Shown here piece by piece: positions 1,167 to 22,511 of a stretch of DNA of 47,850 nt. The position numbers and the translations under genes were made by a program. Positions within the stretch are counted from its first letter, which is position 1. Each line of letters starts with the position of its first letter. The stretch spans positions 1 through 47,850 of the forward strand of contig JAOAKK010000001.1 of the NCBI GenBank assembly GCA_026413685.1, given 5' to 3'. The DNA comes from Candidatus Micrarchaeota archaeon (lineage in GTDB: Archaea > Micrarchaeota > Micrarchaeia > CAILAH01). The notes under the pieces were generated by a model. It was not told the DNA's origin. It made no database searches and saw only the letters and a list, made by a program, of their open reading frames with translations.

Positions 1167-1185
1167 ATGATAGTATGGTGGGAGT

Positions 1186-1965: not shown

Positions 1966-2007
1966 GCAGTTCTGGAAGATGCAGCCATTCTTTAATAAGG
2001 TGATGTA

Positions 2008-2838: not shown

Positions 2839-2911
2839 TGTTATTATGTATTAAAGTTTAATGCAAATGTATGCTATGCAGGCGTTTGTTATAAAGGGAT
2901 GATATACTGAA

Positions 2912-4138
2912 ATGAAGGTGCTGGCGAGCAGAGGTGTTATGATGGTTGATTACAAGAAAGATTTTCCCATACTTGAGAGGTTTCACTACCTTGATAGTGC
3001 GGCAACATCACTCAAGCCAATACAGGTTATTGAGGCTGAGATGGAATATTACAAAGAGTACCCTGCAAATGTCCACAGGGGCGTTTACAAGCTGAGCGAG
3101 CGTGCAACTGAGATGTTTGAGCGCACGCGTGATAGTACCGCCAGGATGTTTGGTGCAAAGTCGCGTGAGGTAATATTTACGAGAAACACTACAGAATCGC
3201 TTAACCTGCTTGCAGCCACTTTGGGCAATTCTGTATTAAGGAAGGGGGATACAGTGCTTTTGACAGCGATGGAGCACCACAGCAATATTGTGCCGTGGCT
3301 TATGCTGAAGGAGCGGGTTGGTATTCGTGTTGAGTTTGTTGAGCTTGAAGGCCAATCGCTTGATTATGAGGATTTCAAGGCAAAAGTTGGCAAGTATAAC
3401 CCAAAAGTCGTTTCGTTCATGCACGCATCAAACGTGCTTGGCACAATAAACGATGCTGCAAAGATAATAAAGCTTGCAAAACGCAGCGGTGCAATAACAA
3501 TTATGGACTGTGCACAAAGCGCCCCTCACATTAAGGTTGATTTTTCAAGGCTTGGTGTTGATTACATTGCTTTTTCTGCGCATAAGCTGCTCGGGCCGAC
3601 AGGTGTTGGCGTCCTTATCGGAAAAGAAAGCCAGCTTGAAGAGCTCCCACCGTTTATGGGCGGAGGCAGCATGATACGAGAGGTTAGCAGGCAAGGGTTT
3701 AAGCCGGCAGAGCTGCCGCAGAAGTTTGAGGCCGGCACGCCAAACATTGCTGGTGTGATAGGGTTTGGTGCAGCTTTGGATTACATCAAGAAGGTTGGCT
3801 TTGGCAAGATAGAGAGTGTTGAGAAAGGCCTGCTTGCCTACATCCTCAAGCGGGCGCGCGAGCTCGGCTACATAAAAGTTTATTCAAGCCAGGATGTTGG
3901 CAATGCGGTTGGGATATTCGCGTTCAATGTAGATGGTGTCCACCCGCACGATGTGTCAGCGCTTCTTGACGAGGCAAACGTTTGCATACGTGCAGGGCAC
4001 CACTGTGCACAGCCATTGCATAGCCAGCTTGGGATAAATTACACCGCACGTGCAAGCTTGTATTTCTACAATACAAAAGAGGATGTTGATGCATTGTTTT
4101 GCGGCCTTGAGAATGTGAAAAAGGTATTCAATGCATAG
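2912..4138 (+). CDS. sufS: Cysteine desulfurase SufS (class V aminotransferase)
   Basis: PLP-lysine motif FSAHKLLGPTGVGVL and active-site Cys loop IRAGHHCAQPL. About 400 aa. Alternative start at ATG 2939. Confidence 0.88.
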   Translation: MKVLASRGVMMVDYKKDFPILERFHYLDSAATSLKPIQVIEAEMEYYKEYPANVHRGVYKLSERATEMFERTRDSTARMFGAKSREVIFTRNTTESLNLLAATLGNSVLRKGDTVLLTAMEHHSNIVPWLMLKERVGIRVEFVELEGQSLDYEDFKAKVGKYNPKVVSFMHASNVLGTINDAAKIIKLAKRSGAITIMDCAQSAPHIKVDFSRLGVDYIAFSAHKLLGPTGVGVLIGKESQLEELPPFMGGGSMIREVSRQGFKPAELPQKFEAGTPNIAGVIGFGAALDYIKKVGFGKIESVEKGLLAYILKRARELGYIKVYSSQDVGNAVGIFAFNVDGVHPHDVSALLDEANVCIRAGHHCAQPLHSQLGINYTARASLYFYNTKEDVDALFCGLENVKKVFNA

Positions 4139-4540
4139 GTGCTTATGATGGATGTTGATTACGAGCTCCTTGCTGAAAGGTATAAGAGGCCGAAGCATAA
4201 GAAGAAGCTGAAAGGCGCATTTACAGGGGAGGCGTCAAACTCGCCTTGTGGTGATAACATAAAGATATATATCTCTGTTGGTGCCGAAGGCAAGATAAGG
4301 GATGCTGCGCATGATGGGCACAGTTGTGCGCTTGCAACAGTTAGTGCCGATATGCTGTGTGATTACGCTATTGGGAAAAGGCTTGGCGATGTATGCAATG
4401 TAGACTTTGAAAAGATGGTGCGTATGCTTGGGTTTACACCATCCATTGGCAGGGCAGGCTGTGTGCGTGTATCGCTGGATGCGTTCCATGACGCGTGCAG
4501 GACGGCAATGCGCACAGGAAAGCGCAGGAAGACAAAATGA
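4139..4540 (+). CDS. IscU/SufU-type Fe-S scaffold or sulfur-acceptor protein
   Basis: Three conserved Cys contexts (NSPCGD, GHSCALATVSA, RAGCVRVSL) directly downstream of sufS. The likely start is ATG 4145. Confidence 0.65.
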   Translation: MLMMDVDYELLAERYKRPKHKKKLKGAFTGEASNSPCGDNIKIYISVGAEGKIRDAAHDGHSCALATVSADMLCDYAIGKRLGDVCNVDFEKMVRMLGFTPSIGRAGCVRVSLDAFHDACRTAMRTGKRRKTK

Positions 4541-4553
4541 CGGGTGGTGAGGT

Positions 4554-4862
4554 ATGGTTCTTGTTGAGCGTAAGGTTAAAGGCGGCAAGCTTGTGCGGGT
4601 AGATGTGCGCTTTGAGGATGAAAGGATTGCAGGCATACGCATAACCGGTGATTTTTTTGTGCATCCAGAGGATGCACTTTTGTGTATTGAGCAGAAGATA
4701 ATAGGGTTGCACATAAATAGTATTGAAGATGGTGTTAAAGAGGCATTCTCCTCTGCCAATGCTGAGATTGTCGGCTTCTCAGCTTTGGACATATCTGAGA
4801 TGATAGCTGAAGCATACATGCAGCAAAGTGCTGGCAATGGCAGCAGCCGCCCAAGCACATGA
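4554..4862 (+). CDS. lplB: Lipoate-protein ligase C-terminal-domain protein (LplB-like)
   Basis: 102 aa. GGKLVRVDVRFEDERIAGIRITGDFFVHPEDAL resembles the accessory C-terminal domain of LplA. Its stop overlaps the next ORF (ATGA). Gene order is the same as in the bipartite LplB/LplA of Thermoplasma. Confidence 0.65.
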   Translation: MVLVERKVKGGKLVRVDVRFEDERIAGIRITGDFFVHPEDALLCIEQKIIGLHINSIEDGVKEAFSSANAEIVGFSALDISEMIAEAYMQQSAGNGSSRPST

Positions 4863-5668
4863 AAATGACAAGGTGGTGCGGGGCACATGATGTAGATGGT
4901 GTTTTTATGCAGGAAGATAATTGGCGTGTTATAAAGGTTTCAGCACAGGATGCGGCGCTTAACATGGCCCTTGACGAGGCAGTATGCCGTGCAATATCAA
5001 AAGGGGTATCCGGCCCAACAGTGCGCTTTTATACATGGTCACCCTCGGCAGTGTCGATTGGATATTTTCAGGAGATTTGGCGCGAGGTTGATATTGATTA
5101 TTGCAGGAAGATGGGGATAAGCTTTGTTAGGAGGCGTACGGGCGGAGGCGCAGTTTATCACGACTCACAAGGTGAGATTACATACAGCGTGCTTGCACCG
5201 GAGTGCATGTTCCCAAAAGGCATAATCGAATCCTATAAGGTTATTTGTGGCTGGATTATTGATGGCCTTGCCGGAGTGGGAATAAGTGCCGAGTTTAGGC
5301 CGATAAATGACATTGTTGCTGGAGGGAAGAAAATATCCGGGAACGCCCAAACGCGAAGGGATGGCGTGCTGCAACAGCACGGCACAATTTTGTACCGCCT
5401 TGATGTAGATACAATGTTCAAGTGCCTGAAAGTTCCAGATGCCAAGATTCGTGATAAAATGATCCAATCCGCCAAGGAGAGGGTAACAAGTGCCAGTGAC
5501 CTTACACAGGGCAATGTCTCTTTTGATGGGCTTTATAAATCGCTTCTTAATGCATTTTGTGCAGGCAAGAAATTCAGTTTTGGCAGTTTCACACAGGAAG
5601 AGCTGGCGGATGCTTATTGGCTTGCACGCACAAAATACTCGTCAGATGAGTGGAATTTTTGGAGGTAA
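4859..5668 (+). CDS. lplA: Lipoate-protein ligase A catalytic subunit
   Basis: BPL/LPL catalytic motifs RRRTGGGAVYHD and GKKISGNAQTRR. The true start may be ATG 4907 (MQEDNWRVIK). Confidence 0.85.
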   Translation: MKMTRWCGAHDVDGVFMQEDNWRVIKVSAQDAALNMALDEAVCRAISKGVSGPTVRFYTWSPSAVSIGYFQEIWREVDIDYCRKMGISFVRRRTGGGAVYHDSQGEITYSVLAPECMFPKGIIESYKVICGWIIDGLAGVGISAEFRPINDIVAGGKKISGNAQTRRDGVLQQHGTILYRLDVDTMFKCLKVPDAKIRDKMIQSAKERVTSASDLTQGNVSFDGLYKSLLNAFCAGKKFSFGSFTQEELADAYWLARTKYSSDEWNFWR

Positions 5669-5690: not shown

Positions 5691-7118
5691 CTATTTTTTC
5701 TTCAGCAGGTAATGCATGGGCTTGCCGAGCGCAATCTCCATAGCCTCATGTATTGACTCATAAAACGTCGGGTGTGCGTGCACGGTTGCTGCAATATCTT
5801 CCACATAAGCGTTCATCTCAAGCGCAACCCCAGCTTCACCAGCAAGCTCTGATGCATGTTTTCCTACCATCCCGAAGCCCAGTATCCTGTTATTACTGTC
5901 ACAGATTATTTTGACAAGCCCATCTTCACGTGATTCTGCCACAGCCCTTCCAAGTGCAGAGAACGGGAATTTTATGGCCTTTACATCATAACCTCTTTTT
6001 CGTGCTTCATCCTCGCTCATGCCCACAACGGCAATTTCAGGGTTTGTGAATACAATCTCAGGGATGCTGCGCGGCTCAAACACACTCCCTTTGATGCCCG
6101 CGGCAGCCTCAGCTGCAACAAGCCCTTGCATGAATGCCTTATGTGCAAGCAATTGCCCACCAACACAATCCCCAGCAGCGTAAACATTTGGCTCGCCGGT
6201 TTGCATCCTCTCATTCACACAGATAAACCCATCCTTATCCAGTTTTATTTTTGTGTTCTCAAGCCCCAGCCCAGCGGTATTTGGAACTCTTCCGATAGCC
6301 ACCACTGCCTTGTTTGCGCGCAGCTTTTGCAGCTTCCCATTTTCACCTGCTGTAAATTCGATTACGACACCTTTTTTATCCTGCCTTAAGGATACGATTG
6401 TGCATTTTTCATATATGCTCATCCTGCTGTTTTTTGACCTGGCCACTTCTGCAACGAGCTCTTGGTCAAATCTGGAGAGGAGGCGTGAGCGCGCCAGCAG
6501 GTATACTTCAGCACCCATCTCCGCAAAAAATGTCCCAAGCTCAGCAGCAACATACCCTGCACCGATAATGGCAATCCTTTTTGGAATTTTTTCAAGGAAT
6601 AGCGCTTCGCGTGAGGTTATAACATTCCCTCTTATCTTGATTTCTTTCGGAATGTAAGGGATAGACCCTGTGGCAATTATAGCGTTCCTGAACCTTATGC
6701 TTTCCAGCCCACCACCATCTTTTTCCTTTTTTATGAGGATGTGGCCTGATGACTCAAACCGCGCCTCGCCCCTTATAATTTTGACACCGTAAGAATCCAG
6801 CAAAAACTCAACACCTTTCCTTAGTTTCTGGATTACCCGCCTGTTTTCTGCCTGTACTTTTTTCATATCGATTTTTCCAATGCTTGCGCTAATCCCTATT
6901 TTCCTTAAATATTCAGTATCACGCACAAGCCCCGCAACGTTGAGCAGCATCTTTGAAGGGATACACCCACGGTTAAGGCACTCACCTCCAATATCTTCTT
7001 TTTCAATAAGCACAGTGTCAAGGCCTAGCTGCCCTGCCCGTATTGCGGCCATATATCCTGCAGGGCCACCGCCTATTATTGCCAATGAGTATTCCCTTCC
7101 GATTTCACCCATCACCAT
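5691..7118 (-). CDS. lpd: Dihydrolipoamide dehydrogenase (E3)
   Basis: FAD motif GGGPAGY, redox-active disulfide CLNRGCIPSK, NAD motif GAGYVAAE, C-terminal HAHPT..E. Start trimmed to ATG 7118 because the 39-codon upstream extension in the ORF track is hydrophobic nonsense that runs into the divergent promoter. Confidence 0.9.
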   Translation of the reverse strand: MVMGEIGREYSLAIIGGGPAGYMAAIRAGQLGLDTVLIEKEDIGGECLNRGCIPSKMLLNVAGLVRDTEYLRKIGISASIGKIDMKKVQAENRRVIQKLRKGVEFLLDSYGVKIIRGEARFESSGHILIKKEKDGGGLESIRFRNAIIATGSIPYIPKEIKIRGNVITSREALFLEKIPKRIAIIGAGYVAAELGTFFAEMGAEVYLLARSRLLSRFDQELVAEVARSKNSRMSIYEKCTIVSLRQDKKGVVIEFTAGENGKLQKLRANKAVVAIGRVPNTAGLGLENTKIKLDKDGFICVNERMQTGEPNVYAAGDCVGGQLLAHKAFMQGLVAAEAAAGIKGSVFEPRSIPEIVFTNPEIAVVGMSEDEARKRGYDVKAIKFPFSALGRAVAESREDGLVKIICDSNNRILGFGMVGKHASELAGEAGVALEMNAYVEDIAATVHAHPTFYESIHEAMEIALGKPMHYLLKKK

Positions 7119-7169
7119 AAATCCCACTCTCATTATAAATATATAAATGATAAAGGGCATTATTGTAGC

Positions 7170-7988
7170 ATGGCTGTACGAAAGAAGGCAGGCACTATTC
7201 CAAATGGCACACAGACAGCCAATGAGGCAACACAAGCAGCAGAAAAGCAGGAGGCAAGCCAGCTAAGCAGCACGCTAGGCGAAGCAATCAATAAATACAA
7301 GCAGCTCGCCTTTAATGTGGCGTCTGCAATGCCTTACAGTTCCATGAAGCCCTGGGTTGCGTGTGCCGATGACAAGATAGAAGAAGTACTCAATGAAAAT
7401 CGCACGCTCCTCCTTAATTTAAAAGACATATACGTGCTTGCAATCATCCGCGTGATTATGGCCATAATTGCATTTTGGCCAATAAGTTTCCTTCTTTTTT
7501 CATCAATGGCAATACTCGTAGCATCTTTAGGCATGCTGGCTGCAGGAATTGGGGGCAACACACCGATGGCCTTTGCTGGTGTGATCCTGGCTGCAGCGGT
7601 TATACTTGTGCTATTGCCTTCCCTCAAGTTTCTGGCTAGCTCTGCAATCATGCACATAATTGCAAAGCTGGCAGGGGGCAAGGCAACATTTACTGGGACA
7701 TCATCGATAATCCTCTTGTCAGAAGCAGCGTTTACAGTTCTTATGGTACCAATGTGCCTTGCATATGCACTGCTGTTTGGATACCTGATTGGTTTTCTCA
7801 GCTATGCAGTATTTGCATATATGGTTTATCTGCAGTATAGGGGTGTAAAGCATATGCATGCCCTTTCACCGAAACGCGCAGCAATCGTTGTGCTTGCCTC
7901 TCTTGCAGTTGAAGCATTCTTAATACTTGCGGTTTTGGGCGTGCTGGTATTTATGCCCTATGGCTATATCATATTATCTAAGGTGTAA
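7170..7988 (+). CDS. Multi-pass membrane protein, Yip1-like (paralog 1)
   Basis: Polar N-terminus followed by about 5 TM helices. Shares AKLAGGKATFTG / AKLVGGSADFS and overall layout with the next ORF. The Yip1 assignment is from memory of the family pattern only. Confidence 0.45.
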   Translation: MAVRKKAGTIPNGTQTANEATQAAEKQEASQLSSTLGEAINKYKQLAFNVASAMPYSSMKPWVACADDKIEEVLNENRTLLLNLKDIYVLAIIRVIMAIIAFWPISFLLFSSMAILVASLGMLAAGIGGNTPMAFAGVILAAAVILVLLPSLKFLASSAIMHIIAKLAGGKATFTGTSSIILLSEAAFTVLMVPMCLAYALLFGYLIGFLSYAVFAYMVYLQYRGVKHMHALSPKRAAIVVLASLAVEAFLILAVLGVLVFMPYGYIILSKV

Positions 7989-7990
7989 TC

Positions 7991-8740
7991 ATGGGAGACT
8001 TTGATAAGGTTATGAGCGCCTATCTGGGCTATGTTGACCGTGTAAGATCCTTTATACCTTACAAGAGGGTTGCTTTGTGGAAGGATTTTTTCCTAAACCC
8101 CCTGAAGGTGATCGGTGCATCAAAGGATAGCATAATGACTATCTTGAAAGACCTTTACATGATGGGAATACTTTCGTTCATTATATGGCTAGCAAGCGCA
8201 TTCATACCCCAGGCAATAGTGCAGCTTGTGCTTAACCCAGGCATGTCCGCAATATCAATTCCATTACTGGCTTTTATGCTTATCGCCTCAATAGTGTTTC
8301 TTGCTGTTCTGCCATTGATGTCTGCAGCATACGCTTTTCTTGAGTTTATAGTTGCAAAATTGGTTGGCGGGAGTGCGGATTTCAGCAGGCACCTGTTTGC
8401 ATCTGCAATGCCACAGCTTGGAATGTTTGCATTTTTGCTGCCAATAACAATTTTGCAGGCCGTGCTGGGAATATTCTCAATAATCCCATTTTTAGGGCTT
8501 GCTTTAACGTGCCTTTTACTTCCACTGCAGATTGTCGTCCTGTGTGCATGGCTTTACACAATTTACCTTAAGTTTTTGTCATTCAAGGAAGTGCACAAAG
8601 TAAGCGGCATAAGAGCAGCAGCAATAATCATAATTCCATTGATAGTTATAGCTGTGCTGGTGGTAGCACTCGCAATGTTGTTCTACACTTCTATAATGGG
8701 TTTTCTTATAGGCACTTCACTGCCACCAAGAGTTTCTTAA
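7991..8740 (+). CDS. Multi-pass membrane protein, Yip1-like (paralog 2)
   Basis: Tandem paralog of 7170..7988, separated by a 2-nt gap, with the same topology and motif. Confidence 0.45.
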   Translation: MGDFDKVMSAYLGYVDRVRSFIPYKRVALWKDFFLNPLKVIGASKDSIMTILKDLYMMGILSFIIWLASAFIPQAIVQLVLNPGMSAISIPLLAFMLIASIVFLAVLPLMSAAYAFLEFIVAKLVGGSADFSRHLFASAMPQLGMFAFLLPITILQAVLGIFSIIPFLGLALTCLLLPLQIVVLCAWLYTIYLKFLSFKEVHKVSGIRAAAIIIIPLIVIAVLVVALAMLFYTSIMGFLIGTSLPPRVS

Positions 8741-8761
8741 TTTTTTAACTCTATCAATTTT

Positions 8762-10201
8762 TTAGACTATATCAACGAGCAATTTTCCCGGGTCTTCAAG
8801 GTGCCTTTTCACTTCTAGCAGGAACCGTGCAGCTTCAGCACCGTCAGTTATCCTATGGTCAAACGTTAATGAAAGTGGCATGACATCTCTTATTACGATG
8901 CTGTTCCCCATAACAACAGGCTTCTTTTGTATTTTTCCTATGCCAAGTATTGCGCACTCCGGATAATTAAGCACGGGCACACCGTAAGTTGCCCCAATTG
9001 AGCCCCAGTTTGTTATCGTGAACGTACCCCCACTAACCTCATCCAGCGACAGTTCCCTTTTTCTGGCCTTGTCTGAAAGCACCATAATCTCACGCGCAAT
9101 ATCAATGATGCTTTTCAAATCAACATCCTTCACAACCGGCACGATGAGCCCATCCTCAGTATCAACAGCAATCCCGATATTATAGTATTTCTTTATTACG
9201 AACTCGTTGGTATGCTCATCCACTGTGGAATTAAGCCAAGGATGCCTTTTCAGTGCAATCACAGCTGCCTTAATCACAAACGGGAGATATGTTAGATGTA
9301 TCCCATCCTTTGCAGCATTGGCTTTTTCGCGCTCGCGCAGCTCAACAAGCTGTGTCACATCAGCATCTTCTATTGCAGTTGCCTGGACTGCAATACAGTT
9401 TGATTTTCCAAGGCGTGATATGATTGATTTCCTTACACCCTTGATAGGCACACGCACCTCAATATACTTTGCAAGCTCGCCTTTTAGTGGGTGTGCAATC
9501 TTCTCACTTATAGGTTCGGCCTCCTTATCCTTCTTAAGCTTGCCAACTTCGACGATACTTTCGAGCCTCTCCGCAGCACTTTGGACATCACGCTCGAGTA
9601 TCACACCGCCAGGCCCTGTCCCAGCAACCTTAGATAGGTCAATGCCCATCTTTTTTGCAAGGTCTCTGGCTTTTGGTACCGCTTGAACCATTGGTGGGTG
9701 CTCGTGCACCTTCTCAACAACACGCATGTCTTCGCTTCGGTCAAGCTCGCGGAGAACAGGCCTCTTTTTTGCTGCGGCTGCACGCACATCATCCTCGCTT
9801 ATTTCACCGTGCTTGCCAGTGCCTTTTACCATCTTAATATCCACACCAAGCTCACGCGCAAGTGCCCTTACACGCGGTGTTGCGAGCACATCACGCGGTG
9901 CTTCAGCACCTCGCGCAGGCACTTCACCAGCACCTATATTACTTACTACATCAACCTTTGCCGTTGCAGGGCCTATGGTGAGCAGCACACTCCCAACACG
10001 CGCAGTCTCACCTTCCTTGAACCTGAGCTCTATCACTTTCCCTTCCACAGGGGATGGGATCTCAACAACAGCCTTATCAGTCTCAACCTCAGCAATCTTC
10101 TGGTCTTTTTTAATTATGTCTCCTGGCCTGACAAGCCACTTGATGATTGTGGCCTCCTCCATCCCTTCTCCAAGGTCCGGAAGCTTAAATTCAAACACCA
10201 T
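8762..10201 (-). CDS. Dihydrolipoamide acyltransferase (E2) of a 2-oxoacid dehydrogenase complex
   Basis: Lipoyl domain (VETDKAVVEIPSP), two peripheral-subunit-binding-like segments, and catalytic motif TFDHRITDGAEAARF. Start set at MVFEFKLPDLGEG (ATG 10201). Confidence 0.9.
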   Translation of the reverse strand: MVFEFKLPDLGEGMEEATIIKWLVRPGDIIKKDQKIAEVETDKAVVEIPSPVEGKVIELRFKEGETARVGSVLLTIGPATAKVDVVSNIGAGEVPARGAEAPRDVLATPRVRALARELGVDIKMVKGTGKHGEISEDDVRAAAAKKRPVLRELDRSEDMRVVEKVHEHPPMVQAVPKARDLAKKMGIDLSKVAGTGPGGVILERDVQSAAERLESIVEVGKLKKDKEAEPISEKIAHPLKGELAKYIEVRVPIKGVRKSIISRLGKSNCIAVQATAIEDADVTQLVELREREKANAAKDGIHLTYLPFVIKAAVIALKRHPWLNSTVDEHTNEFVIKKYYNIGIAVDTEDGLIVPVVKDVDLKSIIDIAREIMVLSDKARKRELSLDEVSGGTFTITNWGSIGATYGVPVLNYPECAILGIGKIQKKPVVMGNSIVIRDVMPLSLTFDHRITDGAEAARFLLEVKRHLEDPGKLLVDIV

Positions 10202-10214
10202 CCATACGCACCCC

Positions 10215-10766
10215 TTAAGCCGCATTAACGAGCGGGCTAACGATATACGTGCCCACCAAGTAAGTTACCAATAATACCATTATTGCAATGCCCCAGTGCT
10301 CAATTAGCACATGGCTGACTTTTTCGTTCTTGATTTTTGCAATGTATATGCTGAGTGCGCCCAACAGGAGCATTCCCCATATGATTGATGCCAAGACTGC
10401 CAATTGCAACGGCAGCAAAAGTACAGGCACTGCAAACGTTAGTGCAATCACGAGCTTTGTCATAAAAGTTGCAATTGTTGATTCCCATACGCTTCTTTCT
10501 GTTGTCTCGCGGCTTGACTCCTCAGATATGTGTATGCCAAGCGCATCCGAGAGCGCATCTGCAATTGCAATTGTTATAATCCCACCGAGCACTGCTGCTG
10601 TTGAATGCGTGCCCGCGTTAAGGCCCATTACAAGCCCAAGCGTTGTTATCACGCCTGATACAGTGCCAAACCCAAACCCTGTCCTGTAAGACTGCTTAAT
10701 AGCCCCATCCTTGCCGCGCAACCCAAGCCCGCCTTTCCTATCACTCTTGTTTTTTGCAGTGTGCAT
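10215..10766 (-). CDS. VIT1/CCC1-family (iron/manganese transporter-like) membrane protein
   Basis: 183 aa. GFGFGTVSGVITTLGLVMGL and IADALSDALGIHISEES followed by 2-3 TM helices, the pattern of short prokaryotic VIT-family proteins. Sits between the E1beta and E2 genes. Confidence 0.55.
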   Translation of the reverse strand: MHTAKNKSDRKGGLGLRGKDGAIKQSYRTGFGFGTVSGVITTLGLVMGLNAGTHSTAAVLGGIITIAIADALSDALGIHISEESSRETTERSVWESTIATFMTKLVIALTFAVPVLLLPLQLAVLASIIWGMLLLGALSIYIAKIKNEKVSHVLIEHWGIAIMVLLVTYLVGTYIVSPLVNAA

Positions 10767-10777
10767 TCCTTCACCTT

Positions 10778-11755
10778 TTAGTACCTCATCACATCTAGCA
10801 CGGCGCTTTTTACTTTCCTTTCGTTTGGTATGAAGTATTCTTCGAGCTTTGGCAGCGGCACGGGGACATCATACCCCGTGACACGGAGAATAGGCGCACG
10901 CAGGCTTGTAAGCGCCTTCTCAGCTATGCGCGCAGCAATCTCCGAAGATGCGCTAAACCCTCTCATTGCCTCCTGCACAATCACCAGCCGCCCAGTCTTT
11001 CTTACAGAATCAGCAATCGCCTTGTCATCGAGAGGCTTAATCGCCCTCACATCGATTATTTCACAGCTGATGCCATCATTCCTGAGCTCGTTTGCAGCGT
11101 TTTCTGCAACTCTTACCATTGCGCCCCACGCAACAATAGTAACATCCGCACCTTCACGGGCAATCCTGCATTTGCCTATAGGCAGTGTATACCTGTTCTC
11201 CGGAACATTTTCCTTGAATGCCCTGTAAAGCCTCTTATGCTCAAGGAAAAGGACAGGGTCATCCCACTCAGCGGCAGCTGCAAGAAGCCCTTTTGCTTCA
11301 TAAGGCCCTGAAGGCACAAGTATGGTTATGCCAGGTATGTTTGCAAACATCCCCTCAATGGGCTCGGCGTGAAGCTCAAGCGCGCGCACACCACCGCCAT
11401 AAGGCATCCTGATAATTATGGGCATGCTATACCTGCCACGTGTCCTGTTCCTTATCCTTGCAGCGTGCGCATTAATTTGGTTGTATGCAAGGAAAGAAAA
11501 CCCATCAAATTGTATTTCGGGGATTGGGCGCAACCCGGCGTATGCCATCCCAACAGCAGTCCCTATGATCCCAGACTCTGCAAGCGGCGTGTCAAATACT
11601 CTCTCCTGCCCAAATTTATCCTGAAGGCCATCCGTTACCCTGAATACACCACCATTTTTGCCCACATCCTCCCCGAAAATTACAATTCTCTTATCCCTTT
11701 CCATCTCTTGCGCCAGTGCCATGTTGATTGCCTGAATCATATTAACCTCAGCCAT
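10778..11755 (-). CDS. 2-oxoacid dehydrogenase E1 component, beta subunit
   Basis: Transketolase-like pyrimidine-binding region (VFDTPLAESGIIGTAVGMAYAGLRPI) plus C-terminal domain. Start set at MAEVNMIQAIN. Confidence 0.9.
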   Translation of the reverse strand: MAEVNMIQAINMALAQEMERDKRIVIFGEDVGKNGGVFRVTDGLQDKFGQERVFDTPLAESGIIGTAVGMAYAGLRPIPEIQFDGFSFLAYNQINAHAARIRNRTRGRYSMPIIIRMPYGGGVRALELHAEPIEGMFANIPGITILVPSGPYEAKGLLAAAAEWDDPVLFLEHKRLYRAFKENVPENRYTLPIGKCRIAREGADVTIVAWGAMVRVAENAANELRNDGISCEIIDVRAIKPLDDKAIADSVRKTGRLVIVQEAMRGFSASSEIAARIAEKALTSLRAPILRVTGYDVPVPLPKLEEYFIPNERKVKSAVLDVMRY

Positions 11756-11824
11756 AAAACCACCTACCTGCACATACATAGCCTGCCCTCAGCAGCCATG
11801 CCATAAAGCAAGATACCCATCATA

Positions 11825-12907
11825 TCACCTCGCAAACCTGCCAGCATCCTCAAGCTGCTCTTCAAGCTCAGCAGGCATCCTCGCATATACATTCTTGAAC
11901 ATGTGCGTATAATCACTCCTGAACGCCTCAGCCTCCTCAACAGCATGCTCAACCTCAACAGCCGCCTGCTTTATGATTTTCTTTTCCAGCACCTCGTTCC
12001 ATATCCTTTTTGCTTTTAGGTATTTCCTGAACCTTTCAATTGGGTCTTTCTTTTTCCACATCTCAATCTCATCCTCAGGCATGTACCTTTTTGGGTCATC
12101 AGCAGTTGTATGCATCCCCATCCTGTATGATACTGCTTCTATAAGCGTGGGGCCTTCACCTTTTCTTGCAGCGTCTACTGCTATTTTGGCAGTGTAATAC
12201 ATTGCAAGCACATCGTTGCCATCTGCTTGCACGCACCTGATTCCAGCAGCAATGCCTTTCTGTGCGATTGTTTTTGCAGCAGTCTGCTTTTTGCGCGGGA
12301 CTGAGATTGCCCATTGGTTATTTCTCACAACAAATACCACAGGAGCGCCATAAACACCCGCAAAGTTTAGTGCCTCATAAAAATCCCCCTCAGAACTGCC
12401 CCCATCACCAGTATATGTCATTACAACCTTATTCTCACCTTTATGCTTCATAGCCATCCCTATCCCGGCCGCATGCAGGAAATGTGTCGCTACAGGCACA
12501 CAGACAGGCGTAATGTTAAATTCGCGTGGAAGATGGTTGCCCTCTTCAAATCCCATAAAATACATAAGGAAATACTTGAGGGGCACACCCATAACGATGT
12601 ACATCCCCTGCTCCCTATACGCAGGCACTACCCAGTCATCCTTCCTGAGTGCAAACGATGTCCCTACAGTGATTGCCTCCTCACCCCTGCATGGCGCATA
12701 TGTCAGCATCCTTCCCTGCCTTTGCAAGTTTATGGCTTTCTCATCAAGCACCCTTGCAGTCACCATGCACCTGTAAAGCCCTATGAGCTGTTCCCTGCCA
12801 AGGCCGCCCCGCAAAAGTTCCTTCTCGAGCGCCTTATCAACAGCACCATTCTCGTCAAGCACCTGTATATAATCAACACTGCCAGAGAATACCTTTTTCA
12901 CAGCCAT
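11825..12907 (-). CDS. 2-oxoacid dehydrogenase E1 component, alpha subunit (TPP-dependent)
   Basis: TPP-binding motif GDGGSSEGDFYEALNFA...VVRNNQWAIS. Has its own SD-like GGAGAGGTG and an upstream TATA. Confidence 0.9.
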   Translation of the reverse strand: MAVKKVFSGSVDYIQVLDENGAVDKALEKELLRGGLGREQLIGLYRCMVTARVLDEKAINLQRQGRMLTYAPCRGEEAITVGTSFALRKDDWVVPAYREQGMYIVMGVPLKYFLMYFMGFEEGNHLPREFNITPVCVPVATHFLHAAGIGMAMKHKGENKVVMTYTGDGGSSEGDFYEALNFAGVYGAPVVFVVRNNQWAISVPRKKQTAAKTIAQKGIAAGIRCVQADGNDVLAMYYTAKIAVDAARKGEGPTLIEAVSYRMGMHTTADDPKRYMPEDEIEMWKKKDPIERFRKYLKAKRIWNEVLEKKIIKQAAVEVEHAVEEAEAFRSDYTHMFKNVYARMPAELEEQLEDAGRFAR

Positions 12908-12980
12908 GCTTACACCTCTCCCGCAAACTATATATTATTGCCAAATGCTGTGTGCTACCATCATTATGCCGCAGCCGTAA

Positions 12981-14063
12981 TCATTTCGTGCTTATCTGGC
13001 TCACAGGCCTTCTCAGCTCTGCAGGGTCAATACCCTCTTTCATCGCAGCGAGTATGCCCCCAACCTCCCAGTAATTTTGGGCAGCTATGACGCCTTTAAG
13101 CCCAACCTTTTCAGGAGTTGCTTTCATCACAGTTGTGTTTTCCTTGACTGCAATTATTGGTATTTTCCATTTCTGTGCAGCAAGCGCCGGGATGCCACCC
13201 ATGCAGGTATATGGCATTACGACAGCATCAACATCCCATACACTTATGCCACCCTCCGCACCCGCCCGATGCAAGCTTATGTCATCCCTGCTTAGAGGGA
13301 TAAGCCTGGGCGCCCTGTCCAACCCCTGCAGCACGCATCCCAGGTAAGCAGGCCCAATCGCCTCTGCAGCGGCGCGTGGGTCAACCCTGCCGCTATGCGT
13401 TTCCTTATATATCTCATATTTGCTGAGCAACGGTGCGTGTGCAGCAGGCACACCAAACTTTGCAGATATGAGGTGGGATATTATGGCCTCAGTGCCACCG
13501 TAAGGGTTTGCACCCTTCCCTTGGAAATATGCTTTCAAGTCTTTCATATTAATCTTGATTGAAAGCGAGATTGCAAGCGCCTGCGCACCTTTCGATATTG
13601 CGAGCTGGCACGCCTCTAAAAGCGGCTCTTCATTTGTTATCTCTCCCACAAACGACCCGCTGCGTGTCTTGACAGCACGCGCCTCAACAGCCTCCTTCGT
13701 CTTGAATACGCCTGCAATCTCAACACCCGCAACTGTCCTCATCGCATTGATAGTATTTATTGCAAGGTCATAGCTCTCCTTTTCCATTCCTTTATCAAGG
13801 ACCACGCCTATCCTGTTTCTCTCCACTTCACGCAGGGCAACCTCTCCCTTAAAGAACTTATCCAAGGAGTACCCCTCAACATAGAGGACATTTCTTTTTG
13901 CTACGTTAAGCGCAACACCGTTTACTACATTCGGGTGTGAAATCACCCTATCTGCAATCGATGCCATCATATTGGTTGCTGGTGTTGCATCCCCAACATA
14001 ACCGCCTATATCTGCTTTCACACCTGTTGGGACGATGTGTGCAACAATGAACTGGTTTGCCAT
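12981..14063 (-). CDS. Conserved uncharacterised protein (DUF3326-like by recollection)
   Basis: About 360 aa. N-terminal IVPTGVKADIGGYVGDATPA, PYGGTEAIISH, MPYTCMGGIPALAAQ. Start set at ATG 14063, preceded by a GGGTGG SD-like element. No catalytic family recognised. Confidence 0.5.
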   Translation of the reverse strand: MANQFIVAHIVPTGVKADIGGYVGDATPATNMMASIADRVISHPNVVNGVALNVAKRNVLYVEGYSLDKFFKGEVALREVERNRIGVVLDKGMEKESYDLAINTINAMRTVAGVEIAGVFKTKEAVEARAVKTRSGSFVGEITNEEPLLEACQLAISKGAQALAISLSIKINMKDLKAYFQGKGANPYGGTEAIISHLISAKFGVPAAHAPLLSKYEIYKETHSGRVDPRAAAEAIGPAYLGCVLQGLDRAPRLIPLSRDDISLHRAGAEGGISVWDVDAVVMPYTCMGGIPALAAQKWKIPIIAVKENTTVMKATPEKVGLKGVIAAQNYWEVGGILAAMKEGIDPAELRRPVSQISTK

Positions 14064-14079
14064 AATGCCACCCAAACTC

Positions 14080-14286
14080 CTAGCCATTGCCTTTTCGGCT
14101 TTTTGTGGATTGGCCTTCAACACGCATGGATGCATCCACAACAAGGCTCCTGCCTTTTACATCCACGATAGCAAACCTTAGCACTTTTCCATTAACGTTG
14201 GCCCTCAAATACTCTTGTATATAATCCAACAATTGCTCTCCACCTACGTTTTTTCGTGGTATTTCAATCCTGCGTGAGATTATCAT
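14080..14286 (-). CDS. Small hypothetical protein (68 aa)
   Basis: ATG preceded by GAGGGGGGAG (SD-like) and an AT-rich TATA-like stretch. The stop lies 16 nt before the next gene's ATG, an operon-like arrangement. No recognisable family. Confidence 0.4.
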   Translation of the reverse strand: MIISRRIEIPRKNVGGEQLLDYIQEYLRANVNGKVLRFAIVDVKGRSLVVDASMRVEGQSTKSRKGNG

Positions 14287-14348
14287 ACTCCCCCCTCAAA
14301 CTATCAGCAGCAATTATAATATTTTTGAACCTGCAGATGCCGGCAATA

Positions 14349-15212
14349 TCATACTCGGTTGCAGTTTTCTGGAAATATCCTGCCTGCCATGTAAGAGCTC
14401 CTCACGAAAGGGCCGGACGCAACATAATAAAACCCCATCTCCCTTGCAGCATCGCCATATCTCCTGAACTGCTCCGGCGTTACATATTCCTTCACCGGAT
14501 AATGCATCTTGGTTGGCTGCAAGTATTGCCCGATTGCAACGGCTTTTACACCGGCGCTGCGTAAGTCTCTTAATGTGCTTAGCACCTCTTCTTCACTTTC
14601 GCCCATCCCCACCATCAGTGCGGATTTTGTAACTATATGGCTATATTTTGTTGCCACATGTCTCAGCACATCAAGCGATACCTTATAGCTTGCCCTCGGG
14701 TCCCTTACAGCTTTTTGCAGCCTCTCAACCACTTCAACATTATGCCCAAACACATCGGGTGAGGAATTGCAGACAATATCAACAAAATCCAAATTTCCCT
14801 GGAAATCAGGAGCGAGTATTTCTATTTTTATGTTTGGGCATTCTTTCCTTACAGCAGAAATGCATTTCGCAAAATGCAGCGCACCAAAATCTTCCAGGTC
14901 ATCCCTGTCCACGCTTGTGATGACAATGTAGCGCAGGCCAAGCAGTCTGGCTGCCCGCGCAACCCTTTCAGGCTCTGTCCCATCAACCTTTCTACCCTCC
15001 GCTGCAGTTTTCGTGTTGCAGAATTTGCATCCTCTTGTGCACACATCACCAAGAATCATTATAGTTGCGGTCCCGTTCCCCCAGCACTCATTCACATTCG
15101 GGCACTTTGCCTCCCTGCACACCGTCGTAACACCTAACTTATCAAGTATTTCCTTTGTGCAATTGTATTTTCCTGTGGGCAGCCCTATCTTAAGCCACGG
15201 CGGCTTTGCCAT
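14349..15212 (-). CDS. lipA: Lipoyl synthase
   Basis: Auxiliary cluster motif CREAKCPNVNEC and radical-SAM motif CTRGCKFC. 287 aa. Confidence 0.92.
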   Translation of the reverse strand: MAKPPWLKIGLPTGKYNCTKEILDKLGVTTVCREAKCPNVNECWGNGTATIMILGDVCTRGCKFCNTKTAAEGRKVDGTEPERVARAARLLGLRYIVITSVDRDDLEDFGALHFAKCISAVRKECPNIKIEILAPDFQGNLDFVDIVCNSSPDVFGHNVEVVERLQKAVRDPRASYKVSLDVLRHVATKYSHIVTKSALMVGMGESEEEVLSTLRDLRSAGVKAVAIGQYLQPTKMHYPVKEYVTPEQFRRYGDAAREMGFYYVASGPFVRSSYMAGRIFPENCNRV

Positions 15213-15296
15213 AATACTAACTTTTGCTTAATGCTTTTTAAGTTTGGCAGCCAATCCACATATGTGGTTACTCCTCAAAGGCCAAACAGGAAACAT

Positions 15297-17953: not shown

Positions 17954-18059
17954 GCACAACACCACTCTATTTAGCACCTCTACCATTTTTAAAAGTTTGT
18001 GAAGCAAAAACGCAAAAAAAGTATTTAAGCAACGTTCTCATTTCACCTTTATGGATAAG

Positions 18060-18143
18060 CGCTAGGGGGGAGATTTGAACTCCCGCGGCCTTGCGACCAC
18101 TGGATTAGCAATCCAGCGCCCTACCGGACTAGGCGACCCCAGC
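18060..18143 (-). tRNA. tRNA-Ser (GCU), no intron, no encoded CCA
   Basis: Folded by hand. Acceptor GCUGGGG/CCCUAGC, anticodon arm CUGGA-UUGCUAA-UCCAG, long variable arm UGGUCGCAAGGCCGC, T arm GGGAG-UUCAAAU-CUCCC, discriminator G. Confidence 0.9.
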
Positions 18144-18854: not shown

Positions 18855-21800
18855 ATGAATTATCGTGGGGCAGGTCTGCTCTTTTTGCTGTTGCTCTTTA
18901 TGCTAAGTATGGGCTGCCTTGAAAGCTCAGTCCCACTTGCACAGAAGAAAGCGGTGATTGAGAAGGCCCAGCAGTCGGATACAGATGGGGATGGCATACC
19001 TAACATATGGAAGTATACATTCATGCCACAGGGTGATGGCAGGCTCCAGATATCAAAAGAGATAATAATTGTGGGGATGCAGAAAAACCCGGAGTTTGAA
19101 ATTCAGCCAGCATACAAGAGAGATGAGCAGGCATCATCAACTTATTATGACCTGCTTACAAACCTCGCAACAATAACGCTGAACTGCAACTACGCGCTTG
19201 AAGATGTCATAACAGTATGTGGCACTGAGGCTGAATGCCAGAGCCTCTGCACCTCAAACGTGCGCTGCAACAACGGGTTGAACAAATATCCTGCCCTGAA
19301 CGGCACGCTCTACCAGACAGCAGTTGATTTTTCAAACGTAAAAAGAAAGGCCACGGCGTTGCGTGCTGCCATAGCATCAAAAAGCCAGCTGAGCCAGGCG
19401 GATGTTGATAACATACTGCTCCAGCGTGATGAGCTCACAAAGGCGATAAACCGCCTCCTGTCAGACAAGGCGTTTGACCTTGGCATATGCTCGCAGAATG
19501 AGCTCGTTGTTGCACGCGAGCAGCTTGTACAGCTACAGGGCATATATGTTGAGGATGAGAGTGCAACCAAGGCACAGTATTACACGGCATATTCGAAGTT
19601 TGAGATAACGTCACGCACATCATACCTTTATGATGAGAATGCAATTATAGATGCAGATGAGATAATCCCGGAATCATTTGCCGCCAGGAAGTCTGATATT
19701 ACTTTCTTGACAGTGCCCCCGATATATGTGTCTGACTCAATCCCGCTCACCGCACGGTACCGCGTGAGCTTCAAGAAGCCTTCAGATACCCGCACAGATT
19801 TTGGATATAAGGTTATTGCACCGCCCGCAAACTGGGATTTGGAGATGCAGAAAATAACCTACCCATCCGGCACAATACGTGTGCTTGCCCTTGAAAATAT
19901 AGGTGTGTATGTTGAGGGAAGGGCACTGTTCAATTCTGCGCTTGCAGTGCTTCGCACATACGTTGGCTTTGGGTTTGGCCTTGCATTTGTCTCTTTCATT
20001 GTGCTGCTCATAATATACCTGGTGTATACGCTTCTCCGCCTTGTTTATAATGTGTTTATAAGTGCGAGCAGGCACGAGCCCATAATGGAGGCAGTATACA
20101 GGGTTGCAGGGTATGGTGGCCGTGGAAGGAAAGAGTTCATAATAGCAGCAGCGCTTGCGATTATTGCAGGCTCTTACCTGCTCGCTTCTGCGGGCGAGCC
20201 GAAGACTGATGATGTGGTTGTTGCCCTGGCAACAAGCACGGGCTTGCTTTTAGGTGTCTCGGCTTTTGTGGTAGGCCTTGTGCTATTAGGGTTTGTAATT
20301 GAAGACCTGGTAAAGGCGCGGCTGCTTGGTGAGCGGTATGTCCGTGCCCCTGTTGAGCACGGCATCCGCAAGGTCGTGGTTGAGAAAGAGATGCGTGATG
20401 AGCTTCAGAAGATGCGCAAGGACATAATGTCGCTTAAGGAAAGTGCAGCAGTTGCAGGTGTTATTTTTGATGCACAGCGCATAGACAGGTTTTTTGCAGG
20501 GATTTCAGCAGCTGAAACCAATATGTCCCGTGGCAAGCTTGAGGAAGCAGAGCTTATGCTTGAAAAGGAGCTGCGCAAGGAGTATACGGCCCTGCACGAA
20601 ATGCTCTCAGTGAGCATGGACCAGGAGAAGGTCCTTGAGAAGATGCGTGCCGACGTTGAGGATGAGATTGACCAGCTTGAGCAGTTATACAGGAAGGTTG
20701 CAGGGTATAGCATACGGGTTGAGAAGAAGGACTGGCGTGTAGAGGCTAACAGGTACGCAATAATATATTCAGGGCAGGGATTTGTTGCTGCAAAGAAATA
20801 CCTCGATTCGCTGATGGATACAATACGCCAGGAGCGCAGCTCAATCCAGGCAAGGATGTCCGAGCTTGAGCGCCTTATGCTTACAAAATTCCCGTGCCCG
20901 GTATGCAGCCGCACAACAACCCTTGCTTCTGATAGGTGTGAGAGCTGCGGTGTGCCGCTTGAGGAGGGATTTGCCACGAAGGAAAATGAGCTCAGGCAGG
21001 AGCTTAACGGCCTCTCGGTTGAGCTCAAGGCAAAGAAGATTGCGCGTGGCGACCGGCTCGTGGCATCTGTTGAGACGCTGCTCTCACATATGCGTGAGAA
21101 TGTCAATGCAAAGCAGTATAACAAGGCATACGAGCTGGTAACTACGATTGATGAGAAGATGAAATACCTGCGTGAGATTCTTGGAAAGACGATTGCGCAG
21201 GAGGAAGAGCTGAAACAGCATATTGCAGCAATCGGGAAATACCTTGATTCAATCCCAGCCCTGCTTGCGCAGGCTAAGGAGAACAGCATTGACGTATCGG
21301 CTTATGAGAAGAGGTTTGCCGCTTTTAGCAGCAAGGAAGCGCTTGCACAGCTGCAGCAAATGCCTGTTGAGGAAGCTGTCACGAGGAGCAAAGAGCTTTT
21401 GGATGGCTATGCGCTCATTGAGTCAGAGCTTAAGAATACACTTGCAAAGTTTATGATGTCGGTAAGCGCGTTTGAGCGCGTAAACGAGCTTTTCACGGAA
21501 GTATCGACACTCATCACACGCGGCAAGGGGTATGGGATGAGTGTTGAGGAGTATTCAAAAAGGCTCGGTGCGCTCAATGTTGATTCACTGATAAGCTCTA
21601 TCGAAAGGAATGAGGTGAATGAGAAAGAGCTTGCAAACACAGTCAGCATATTATCTGATATGTCAGCCGAGCTTGGCAAGAAAGTTTCAGCAGCCAGGCA
21701 GTTTTCGGAGCAGCTTGATGCGATAGATGCAAAGCTGCACGAGGCGGGCACGCTTGTTGAGGTATGCAAGAAGAACAATCTTGTGCCTTTTGAGGAAATG

Positions 21801-22511
21801 GAGCGGCTTTATGCCACCAGCACCGAGCCGATAAGAAGCAGGCTTGAAAGGTTCGGTATTGATGAGATTGAGCACATAAAGAATGACATAATAAGCCTGA
21901 ATACAAGGGTTGATTCGATCCTCCTTACCCTGCGCAGGAAAAGTGAGGTGCTATCCGCATGGCCCGGGTGGAAGTCTGCGATTGAGGGCTTGCTCCGCAA
22001 GCAGGAGCGTGTTGATCCTGCAATGCTGAGCACAATACCTCCTGAATGGAGGCCTTGGGTGGTTGAGAGGTTTATAGCTGAGACTGACTTGCCGGTTGCG
22101 CTTGAAGGCAACACGATTGTCAAGCTGAAGCCGATAAAAGGAATTTCAAAATCTGACCTTGACAGCATACTCAAGGAGATGATAGATACACAGCGCATAA
22201 TCGGCGGCATGATTTTGCGCAAGGACGGCCTTGTCATCAGCTCAAACCTGCCAAAAGGAGGGGACCCTGAATCCGTTGCAGCGATGAGCGCAAAGGCTAT
22301 GCAGAAGGCAGAAACTGCCTCGAAAGCGCTCAATAAGGGAGATGTGAATTATGTTGCTTTCAACGCAGCGCTTGGCAAGCAGGTGATTGTGCGTGCAGGC
22401 GAGCAGTCACTTATTCTTGCAATCATAAGGCCGGATGAGGACCTAGGGTTTGTGCTATTGGCAATGAAGAAAGCTGCCGATAGGGTAAAGGAAGTTATTG
22501 ATAAGCTATGA
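18855..22511 (+). CDS. Large membrane protein: signal/lipobox-like N-terminus, ecto-domain, about 3 TM helices, helical-repeat coiled coil with zinc ribbon, C-terminal Roadblock/LC7-like domain
   Basis: N-terminus LLFLLLLFMLSMGC. DTDGDGIPN Ca-binding-like motif. TM helices at about aa 370-500. Heptad-rich region of about 600 aa. CPVC..x12..CESC ribbon (nt 20895-20948). The last ~115 aa (ILRKDGLVISS...AAMSAKA...LILAIIRPDEDLGFVLLAMKKAADRV) read as Roadblock/LC7. Confidence 0.8.
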   Translation: MNYRGAGLLFLLLLFMLSMGCLESSVPLAQKKAVIEKAQQSDTDGDGIPNIWKYTFMPQGDGRLQISKEIIIVGMQKNPEFEIQPAYKRDEQASSTYYDLLTNLATITLNCNYALEDVITVCGTEAECQSLCTSNVRCNNGLNKYPALNGTLYQTAVDFSNVKRKATALRAAIASKSQLSQADVDNILLQRDELTKAINRLLSDKAFDLGICSQNELVVAREQLVQLQGIYVEDESATKAQYYTAYSKFEITSRTSYLYDENAIIDADEIIPESFAARKSDITFLTVPPIYVSDSIPLTARYRVSFKKPSDTRTDFGYKVIAPPANWDLEMQKITYPSGTIRVLALENIGVYVEGRALFNSALAVLRTYVGFGFGLAFVSFIVLLIIYLVYTLLRLVYNVFISASRHEPIMEAVYRVAGYGGRGRKEFIIAAALAIIAGSYLLASAGEPKTDDVVVALATSTGLLLGVSAFVVGLVLLGFVIEDLVKARLLGERYVRAPVEHGIRKVVVEKEMRDELQKMRKDIMSLKESAAVAGVIFDAQRIDRFFAGISAAETNMSRGKLEEAELMLEKELRKEYTALHEMLSVSMDQEKVLEKMRADVEDEIDQLEQLYRKVAGYSIRVEKKDWRVEANRYAIIYSGQGFVAAKKYLDSLMDTIRQERSSIQARMSELERLMLTKFPCPVCSRTTTLASDRCESCGVPLEEGFATKENELRQELNGLSVELKAKKIARGDRLVASVETLLSHMRENVNAKQYNKAYELVTTIDEKMKYLREILGKTIAQEEELKQHIAAIGKYLDSIPALLAQAKENSIDVSAYEKRFAAFSSKEALAQLQQMPVEEAVTRSKELLDGYALIESELKNTLAKFMMSVSAFERVNELFTEVSTLITRGKGYGMSVEEYSKRLGALNVDSLISSIERNEVNEKELANTVSILSDMSAELGKKVSAARQFSEQLDAIDAKLHEAGTLVEVCKKNNLVPFEEMERLYATSTEPIRSRLERFGIDEIEHIKNDIISLNTRVDSILLTLRRKSEVLSAWPGWKSAIEGLLRKQERVDPAMLSTIPPEWRPWVVERFIAETDLPVALEGNTIVKLKPIKGISKSDLDSILKEMIDTQRIIGGMILRKDGLVISSNLPKGGDPESVAAMSAKAMQKAETASKALNKGDVNYVAFNAALGKQVIVRAGEQSLILAIIRPDEDLGFVLLAMKKAADRVKEVIDKL

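Follow-up and report, generated by a model that had tools for sequence, protein, structure and literature searches.

A predicted two-part DUF3326 protein in a lipoyl synthase and 2-oxoacid dehydrogenase gene island of Micrarchaeota

The DUF3326 family (PF11805) is widespread, with members in cyanobacteria, Melainabacteria, many DPANN archaea, anammox bacteria and non-ribosomal peptide synthetase (NRPS) gene clusters, and its Pfam description lists eukaryotes too. PavB, encoded in the pavABC pavettamine cluster of Burkholderia sensu lato, is the sole member with genetic evidence of a biosynthetic role, an amine condensation from lysine and cadaverine carried out with PavA. Both PavB and PavA, a fusion of a Rieske protein and a pyridoxal phosphate (PLP)-decarboxylase, are genetically required for N-(5-aminopentyl)pentane-1,5-diamine (bioRxiv 10.64898/2026.06.12.731819). 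A second described setting is a cyanobacterial fed3-DUF650-DUF3326 gene cluster (PMC4284462). Here we analyze a DUF3326 protein and the small open reading frame (ORF) of 68 residues that precedes it in a stretch of 47,850 nucleotides from Candidatus Micrarchaeota archaeon (GenBank assembly GCA_026413685.1, contig JAOAKK010000001.1, positions 1 to 47,850; hereafter the window). Both genes lie on the minus strand between lipA, the gene for lipoyl synthase, and the genes of a 2-oxoacid dehydrogenase (OADH) (Table 1).

The window pair is a further member of a catalogued but uncharacterized family. It resembles the other PF11805 entries, including those from metagenome-assembled genomes (MAGs) of Micrarchaeota and Kuenenia, in its full-length profile match, but unlike the PF11805 model its N-terminal domain lies in a separate gene, outside the model. 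It has the DUF3326 domain in common with PavB, a likeness by domain label only, and differs from it in its partners, which for PavB are the Rieske/PLP-decarboxylase fusion and a JmjC hydroxylase. The cyanobacterial cluster, a conserved one, contains a member of the same Pfam family, whereas the neighbors there are a ferredoxin and DUF650; the Melainabacteria and some of the cyanobacterial loci that we examined differ from that cluster in turn, having tilS and hpt upstream and mostly lacking the N-terminal domain. Fused DUF3326 proteins linked to NRPS genes have both the core and an N-terminal domain with an invariant Leu-Arg (LR) motif in common with the pair; unlike the pair, they are single chains of ∼420–460 residues, are 38–44% identical and stand in a secondary-metabolite setting. 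The small subunit PurS has its own gene in some lineages, while in others it forms the N-terminal domain of large PurL, and the DUF3326 pair shows the same alternation of a ∼70–80-residue domain between a separate gene and an N-terminal fusion, as an analogy of pattern only. To the description of the family we add the split or fused N-terminal domain, the mobility of the pair between archaea and bacteria and the association with NRPS genes.

A preliminary description of the window, made from the letters alone, had assigned the DUF3326 label on the basis of an N-terminal motif and had proposed a Pfam search as a check. The label is correct: PF11805 matches the long ORF over profile positions 5–336 of 337 (E = 6.1e-100, 334.9 bits versus a cut-off of 25). 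As listed, this ORF comprises 387 residues from a TTG start. We prefer the ATG at position 14063 (MANQFIV...) as the likely start, giving 360 residues, because the homologs P0007 and P0010 start with MANQFVVAHI; a second candidate start, the ATG at 14087, would overlap the stop codon of the 68-residue ORF. The closest homologs are deposited Micrarchaeota/Micrarchaeia MAG proteins (74–80% identity). An alignment of 54 homologs, with identities down to 38%, retains 24 invariant positions and a further 38 that are near-invariant, the invariant ones including P12-T13-G14, G20-G21, D25, N45, N48, Y61, E63, N83, E192 and E234, and the window protein carries all family motifs (PTG...GG..GDA.P, HPN..N, Y.EG, NP.GG.EA..SH, AHAP, GG.P and AV.EN.T). 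Asp, Asn, Glu, His and Thr are frequent at the conserved positions, as are Gly-rich loops that follow β-strands, one of them after strand 1 of the core. From this pattern we infer a putative active site for an anionic or polar small molecule. No NCBIfam model matches either ORF of the pair, and neither ORF matches a radical-SAM or BPL_LplA_LipB lipoate-pathway profile in Pfam or NCBIfam. The pair contains no DNA-binding domain, no signal peptide and no dehydrogenase or aminotransferase signature.

The 68-residue ORF appears as a domain of its larger neighbor in several comparisons. Approximately one-third of the 120 best DUF3326 homologs are 60–130 residues longer at the N terminus, and the small ORF aligns with this long-form extension (M-I-x-x-R...LLD...LR[FYW]AIV...vE/D). 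A profile built from fused N-terminal extensions only, with the window excluded, finds the ORF with E = 4.7e-10, while the next best match in a six-frame translation of the whole window has E = 0.63, and BLASTP against the N terminus of the fused homolog P0047 yields E = 8e-7. Of 90 loci that we then scanned using a profile that included the window's 68-residue ORF, 76 have the domain immediately before the DUF3326 core and in the same orientation, as a separate ORF in 39 and fused in frame in 37. The split form is found mostly in DPANN archaea, Brocadiaceae and Sericytochromatia, and the fused form mostly in other bacteria. The 14 loci without the domain come mostly from Melainabacteria (Gastranaerophilales) and cyanobacteria, and include one Micrarchaeota and one Brocadiaceae locus. 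Across 70 non-redundant loci the Arg of the LR motif (VLRFAIV in the window) is conserved at the level of at least 90%. A Shine-Dalgarno-like GAGGGGGGAG ends 1 nucleotide (nt) before the ATG of the small ORF. An exhaustive phmmer search with the 68-residue ORF returned eight standalone small homologs (55–108 residues) along with two long proteins, which are probably spurious. No model in Pfam or NCBIfam covers the N-terminal domain; PF11805 spans only the ∼337-residue core. We considered and rejected a spurious small ORF, given the match to the fused-form profile, the position in 76 of the 90 loci and the conserved Arg. Judged by sequence comparison, the 68-residue ORF is a real gene that encodes the detached N-terminal domain, or small subunit, of DUF3326, and the two ORFs of the pair are two halves of one conserved protein.

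An AlphaFold2 model of the core (predicted local distance difference test (pLDDT) 91.6, predicted template modeling (pTM) score 0.90) has alternating β-strands and helices that make up α/β domains. For a fused homolog, the AlphaFold model (pTM 0.89) shows residues 1–59 (pLDDT >90) folded into a β-α-β-β arrangement, which is connected to the core by a disordered linker. Foldseek searches of the PDB with the core and the fused model returned generic α/β matches only. The best whole-chain matches are sugar-binding proteins and LacI repressors (E ∼4e-4 to 1e-2, template modeling (TM) score ∼0.2, root mean square deviation (r.m.s.d.) >20 Å), and lumazine synthase matches one flavodoxin-like domain (TM score ∼0.5 on the target). 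The top 50 matches of either model include no classical short- or medium-chain NAD(P) Rossmann dehydrogenase, and no PLP enzymes are found among the top 50 matches listed. The sole match in a search of PDB sequences with the family profile was a spurious antifreeze protein (E = 0.23). A confident match to a characterized enzyme family, named in the preliminary description as an outcome that would speak against its reading, was obtained neither by Foldseek against the PDB nor by the profile searches. As a separate candidate we examined the Asp/Glu/hydantoin racemases, to which just 2 of the 54 members show weak matches (PF01177, E = 0.02). These were rejected on an hhalign probability of 0.4% between the family profile and Escherichia coli MurI, and on the Cys of the P..C.GG.P motif, which is not conserved (APASTLGG in P0104).

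We assembled 89 loci with DUF3326 homologs, including flanks of up to 10 kb on each side, and searched them with the LipA, E1α, E1β, E2 and E3 proteins of the window; the genome loci among them (n = 80) are the best-scoring of at least 485 matches. All five proteins are matched only in L004 (with its near-duplicates L005 and L015), L013, L016, L019 and L021, five loci of Micrarchaeia type. No LipA, E1, E2 or E3 match was detected in any of the 78 other non-redundant loci, even at E ≤ 1e-3, and 50 of these are flanked by 5 kb or more on each side. The 78 unlinked loci include those from Brocadiaceae/Kuenenia, Iainarchaeum/Diapherotrites, Aenigmatarchaeota and Woesearchaeota, Methanoperedens, cyanobacteria, Melainabacteria, Proteobacteria and Acidobacteria. 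The Micrarchaeota-labeled loci L020 and L022 are also without linkage, with a downstream flank of only ∼0.6 kb in L020. Throughout the region the window and the linked loci are collinear, also at unrelated genes (such as a deaminase, a glutaredoxin, an ACT protein and a 1200-residue Roadblock protein), so these loci together count for about one evolutionary observation. The preliminary description had proposed, by association, a role of the pair in lipoyl-cofactor or OADH metabolism and had named a lack of recurrent linkage with lipA and OADH genes among homologs as an outcome that would refute it. Family, pairing and gene order stand, but the reading itself is supported only in part: the neighborhood comparison, with five collinear Micrarchaeia loci only, largely gave the refuting outcome, and a general role of DUF3326 in lipoyl-cofactor metabolism is not supported. 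With linkage confined to one archaeal clade, the location says little about DUF3326 function, and there may be a clade-specific tie to the dehydrogenase or its substrate in Micrarchaeia.

The family is found in several other contexts. In anammox bacteria (Brocadiaceae/Kuenenia) the small ORF and DUF3326 are 72–77% identical to the Micrarchaeia pair, compared with only 58–65% for other Micrarchaeota, which points to an archaeal-bacterial transfer of both genes as a self-sufficient unit. The anammox pairs are located on bacterial contigs of 240–360 kb and have unrelated neighbors (L001/L014, L010–L012, L017 and L018). The two genes travel together and do not depend on lipoate or OADH neighbors. 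No family is enriched among 114 neighbor proteins from 26 archaeal and anammox loci (CBS 4, radical SAM 4, ATP-grasp 3); as for the Kuenenia neighbors, only two to three loci share the 776-residue protein without a Pfam match, the ADP-forming acyl-CoA synthetase and the DRTGG protein. Fused DUF3326 adjoins an NRPS C-A-T module (∼1100 residues, directly downstream or near) in 17–20 loci from Gamma-, Alpha- and Deltaproteobacteria, Acidobacteria, Chloroflexi and Acidimicrobiia (L039, L041, L043–L046, L050, L052, L054, L057, L058, L061, L063, L067, L070, L071 and L081).

Further neighbors were observed at single loci or in smaller groups. In L057, a lantibiotic-dehydratase-like gene follows the fused DUF3326 gene instead. 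Two short proline-racemase-like ORFs of 79 and 90 residues, probably one disrupted gene, are found directly after fused DUF3326 in L007 (10326–10856). In L027 (Aenigmatarchaeota), a VIT1-like gene (1688–2206) starts 4 nt after the small-DUF3326 pair, and its product shares 36% identity with that of the window (E = 5e-31); this contig shows no OADH genes. In Micrarchaeia the corresponding gene stands between E1β and E2. Given this one extra instance, the VIT1-like membrane protein is a candidate second partner for DUF3326. DUF3326 follows hpt in Melainabacteria (Gastranaerophilales) and some cyanobacteria (L048, L068, L069, L075, L078, L083 and L085), in most cases with tilS upstream of hpt, and no N-terminal domain was detected at these loci. 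In Trichodesmium, Hormoscilla, Symploca and one gammaproteobacterium, DUF3326 is placed between a sulfotransferase-like gene and an uncharacterized gene of 280 codons.

Signals in the gaps around the pair point either way regarding co-transcription of lipA, the pair and E1α. The TATA-box-like, AT-rich stretch AAAAATATTATAATT in the gap between lipA and the 68-residue ORF could serve the pair as a separate promoter. AT-rich stretches are also seen upstream of the small ORF in Micrarchaeia loci, and an alignment of these upstream regions contains no conserved alignable motif. TATA-like AT-rich boxes are present both in this gap and in the one before E1α. Neither the lipA/68-residue ORF gap nor the DUF3326/E1α gap holds a run of at least five T, and read-through from lipA into the pair is possible, because the former gap lacks such a run.

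We propose, with moderate confidence, that the pair is a two-part portable enzyme and that its place in this island reflects a gene order inherited within Micrarchaeia. The small β-α-β-β subunit would probably dock on the α/β core of DUF3326, and may bring its invariant Arg to a core site formed by the many invariant polar residues. The two halves together would form a soluble enzyme for a small metabolite bearing an amine or carboxylate, amino acids, 2-oxoacids and polyamine precursors being examples. The setting among Suf, Lpl, OADH and LipA genes would stem from the inherited gene order; a local functional link, if any, would more likely concern the substrate of the dehydrogenase than the making or attachment of lipoate, and the pair is probably not a component of the lipoate pathway.

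Several observations weigh against this proposal. Neither Foldseek nor the profile search provided an informative structural relative in the PDB, so the label "enzyme" rests on the conservation pattern and the gene context. Catalysis by DUF3326 members, with any cofactor or ligand, is putative, and the association of the two halves is deduced from gene fusion only. The more distant members of the family are under-sampled among the best-scoring genome loci. A move of lipA in L004 has taken it from the upstream to the downstream side of the pair, with a 4-nt overlap at the DUF3326 stop codon, and the pair directly precedes E1α in five of the six Micrarchaeia arrangements; that it stays beside lipA or E1α despite rearrangement argues for some local coupling.

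The alternative that survives best, although we regard it as unlikely, is that the pair supplies or drains the substrate of the dehydrogenase by converting an amino acid or amine to the 2-oxoacid oxidized by E1. A gene for leucine dehydrogenase plays such a 2-oxoacid-supplying role in the bkd operon of Bacillus subtilis. The position before E1α would be in line with this, as would the amino acid and amine chemistry of the other contexts (NRPS modules, PavB and the proline-racemase fragments) and the lack of a T-run terminator between DUF3326 and E1α, but the TATA-like box in that same gap would permit separate transcription, the linkage is limited to one clade, and a dehydrogenase or aminotransferase signature is absent from the pair, as are classical NAD(P) Rossmann dehydrogenases and PLP enzymes from the top 50 Foldseek matches listed.

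Broader in scope and quite improbable in our estimate is that the Micrarchaeia pair represents a new component of lipoyl-dependent 2-oxoacid oxidation, concerned with either 2-oxoacid supply or the octanoyl/lipoyl precursor that the Lpl(AB)/LipA route would require where fatty-acid synthesis is lacking. The pair would then share both inheritance and expression with lipA and E1.

We consider highly improbable a narrower version, the main idea of the preliminary description, in which the pair serves lipoyl-cofactor metabolism or E2 maturation as an accessory factor, and does so in Micrarchaeia only. It could provide reductant, sulfur or Fe-S clusters to LipA, or an octanoyl or lipoyl precursor for the Lpl(AB)/LipA route. 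The source of octanoate or lipoate in archaea that lack fatty-acid synthesis is, to our knowledge, unclear. Combinations of Lpl and LipA rely on free octanoate or lipoate (PMC10332631), the cyanobacterial fed3-DUF650-DUF3326 cluster (PMC4284462) could be read in the same sense, and the pair is embedded in an island of Suf, LplA/LplB, E3, E2, E1 and LipA genes, where its adjacency to lipA has outlasted the rearrangement that produced the 4-nt overlap in L004. Against this, ∼2 kb of genes on the opposite strand come between lipA and the pair in L021; the synteny takes in unrelated genes and so counts as one evolutionary observation; none of the 78 loci outside the clade is linked; the closely similar anammox pair does without these neighbors; and the pair bears no likeness to lipoate-pathway families in Pfam or NCBIfam.

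Just as doubtful is a non-catalytic ligand-binding or regulatory protein that senses a metabolite with a clamshell of the periplasmic-binding-protein-type-I or LacI-like kind, since the sugar-binding proteins and LacI repressors that head the whole-chain Foldseek list do so at a TM score and r.m.s.d. that confine the likeness to generic α/β domains, the many invariant polar residues are more typical of an active site, the pair has neither a DNA-binding domain nor a signal peptide, and the phenotype of the pavB deletion is biosynthetic.

The two-part enzyme that we favor is surrounded in the window by a ∼15-kb island, which combines Fe-S assembly and lipoate ligation (45–5668, plus strand) with lipoyl synthesis and the dehydrogenase (5691–15212, minus strand). 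It extends beyond the genes named in the preliminary description and is more coherent than that description had it. The layout of Suf, Lpl, E3, E2, E1, DUF3326 and LipA genes is repeated in L004. The order lipA, 68-residue ORF, DUF3326, E1α, E1β, VIT-like gene and E2 on the minus strand, as set out in the preliminary description, was recovered for every gene and position. The intergenic gaps had been put at 16–75 nt, which is accurate for the first four junctions (lipA/68-residue ORF 62 nt, 68-residue ORF/DUF3326 16 nt, DUF3326/E1α 73 nt and E1α/E1β 45 nt) but not for E1β and the VIT-like gene, which are 11 nt apart, or for the VIT-like gene and E2, which overlap. The LipA translation displays the CX4CX5C, CX3CX2C and RSSY motifs. 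The start of E3 is probably downstream of the listed TTG, and the lipoate ligase is split into an LplB-like protein and LplA. Between E2 and E3, two tandem genes for Yip1-like multi-pass membrane proteins are located on the opposite strand, and one such homolog is also found in related Micrarchaeia loci.

On its other side, lipA is divergent from a gene of the cytidine/deoxycytidylate deaminase family, and the two starts are only 18 nt apart (15212–15231), which places the lipA promoter inside the neighboring gene or else implies leaderless transcripts. The top NCBIfam match of this deaminase is TadA, under its cut-off. Farther along the window are two adjacent ORFs whose N termini resemble archaeal pilin-type signal peptides by inspection, the sole tRNA gene of the window and a large, mostly helical protein that is kept beside the region in L004.

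Table 1. Positions of the DUF3326 pair, the surrounding island and other features in the window
Feature	Position	Strand	Evidence or remark
lipA, canonical lipoyl synthase	15212-14349	minus	TIGR00510, 381 bits versus cut-off 310
TATA-box-like AT-rich stretch AAAAATATTATAATT	14326-14312	minus	read from sequence; lipA/68-residue ORF gap
Shine-Dalgarno-like GAGGGGGGAG	14297-14288	minus	
68-residue ORF, predicted detached N-terminal domain of DUF3326	14286-14080	minus	fused-N-terminus profile, E = 4.7e-10
DUF3326 core protein	14063-12981	minus	PF11805; 360 residues from ATG 14063
E1α, 2-oxoacid dehydrogenase	12907-11825	minus	PF00676, E = 3e-88
E1β, 2-oxoacid dehydrogenase	11779-10778	minus	PF02779 and PF02780
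VIT1-like small membrane protein	10766-10215	minus	PF01988, E = 2e-6, exactly at cut-off
E2 acyltransferase, one lipoyl domain	10225-8762	minus	PF00364, PF02817 and PF00198
Two tandem Yip1-like genes	7170-8740	plus	
E3, dihydrolipoamide dehydrogenase	7235-5691	minus	PF07992 and PF02852
SufB, SufC, SufD, SufS, NifU-like, LplB-like, LplA catalytic subunit	45-5668	plus	Pfam matches
Two adjacent ORFs, 243 and 126 residues	16445-17558	plus	no Pfam match
tRNA-Ser (GCT)	18059-18143	minus	
1218-residue mostly helical protein	18855-22511	plus	C-terminal Roadblock/LC7 domain

For lipoate biology our comparison is cautionary, in that the position of the pair among Suf, Lpl, OADH and LipA genes is a single clade-specific arrangement and not independent evidence of a new lipoylation factor. 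For the DUF3326 family, which is widespread and uncharacterized, it offers several handles: a predicted two-part protein with a small domain that is absent from the databases, a pair that is mobile between archaea and bacteria, and, in bacteria, a recurrent NRPS partner.

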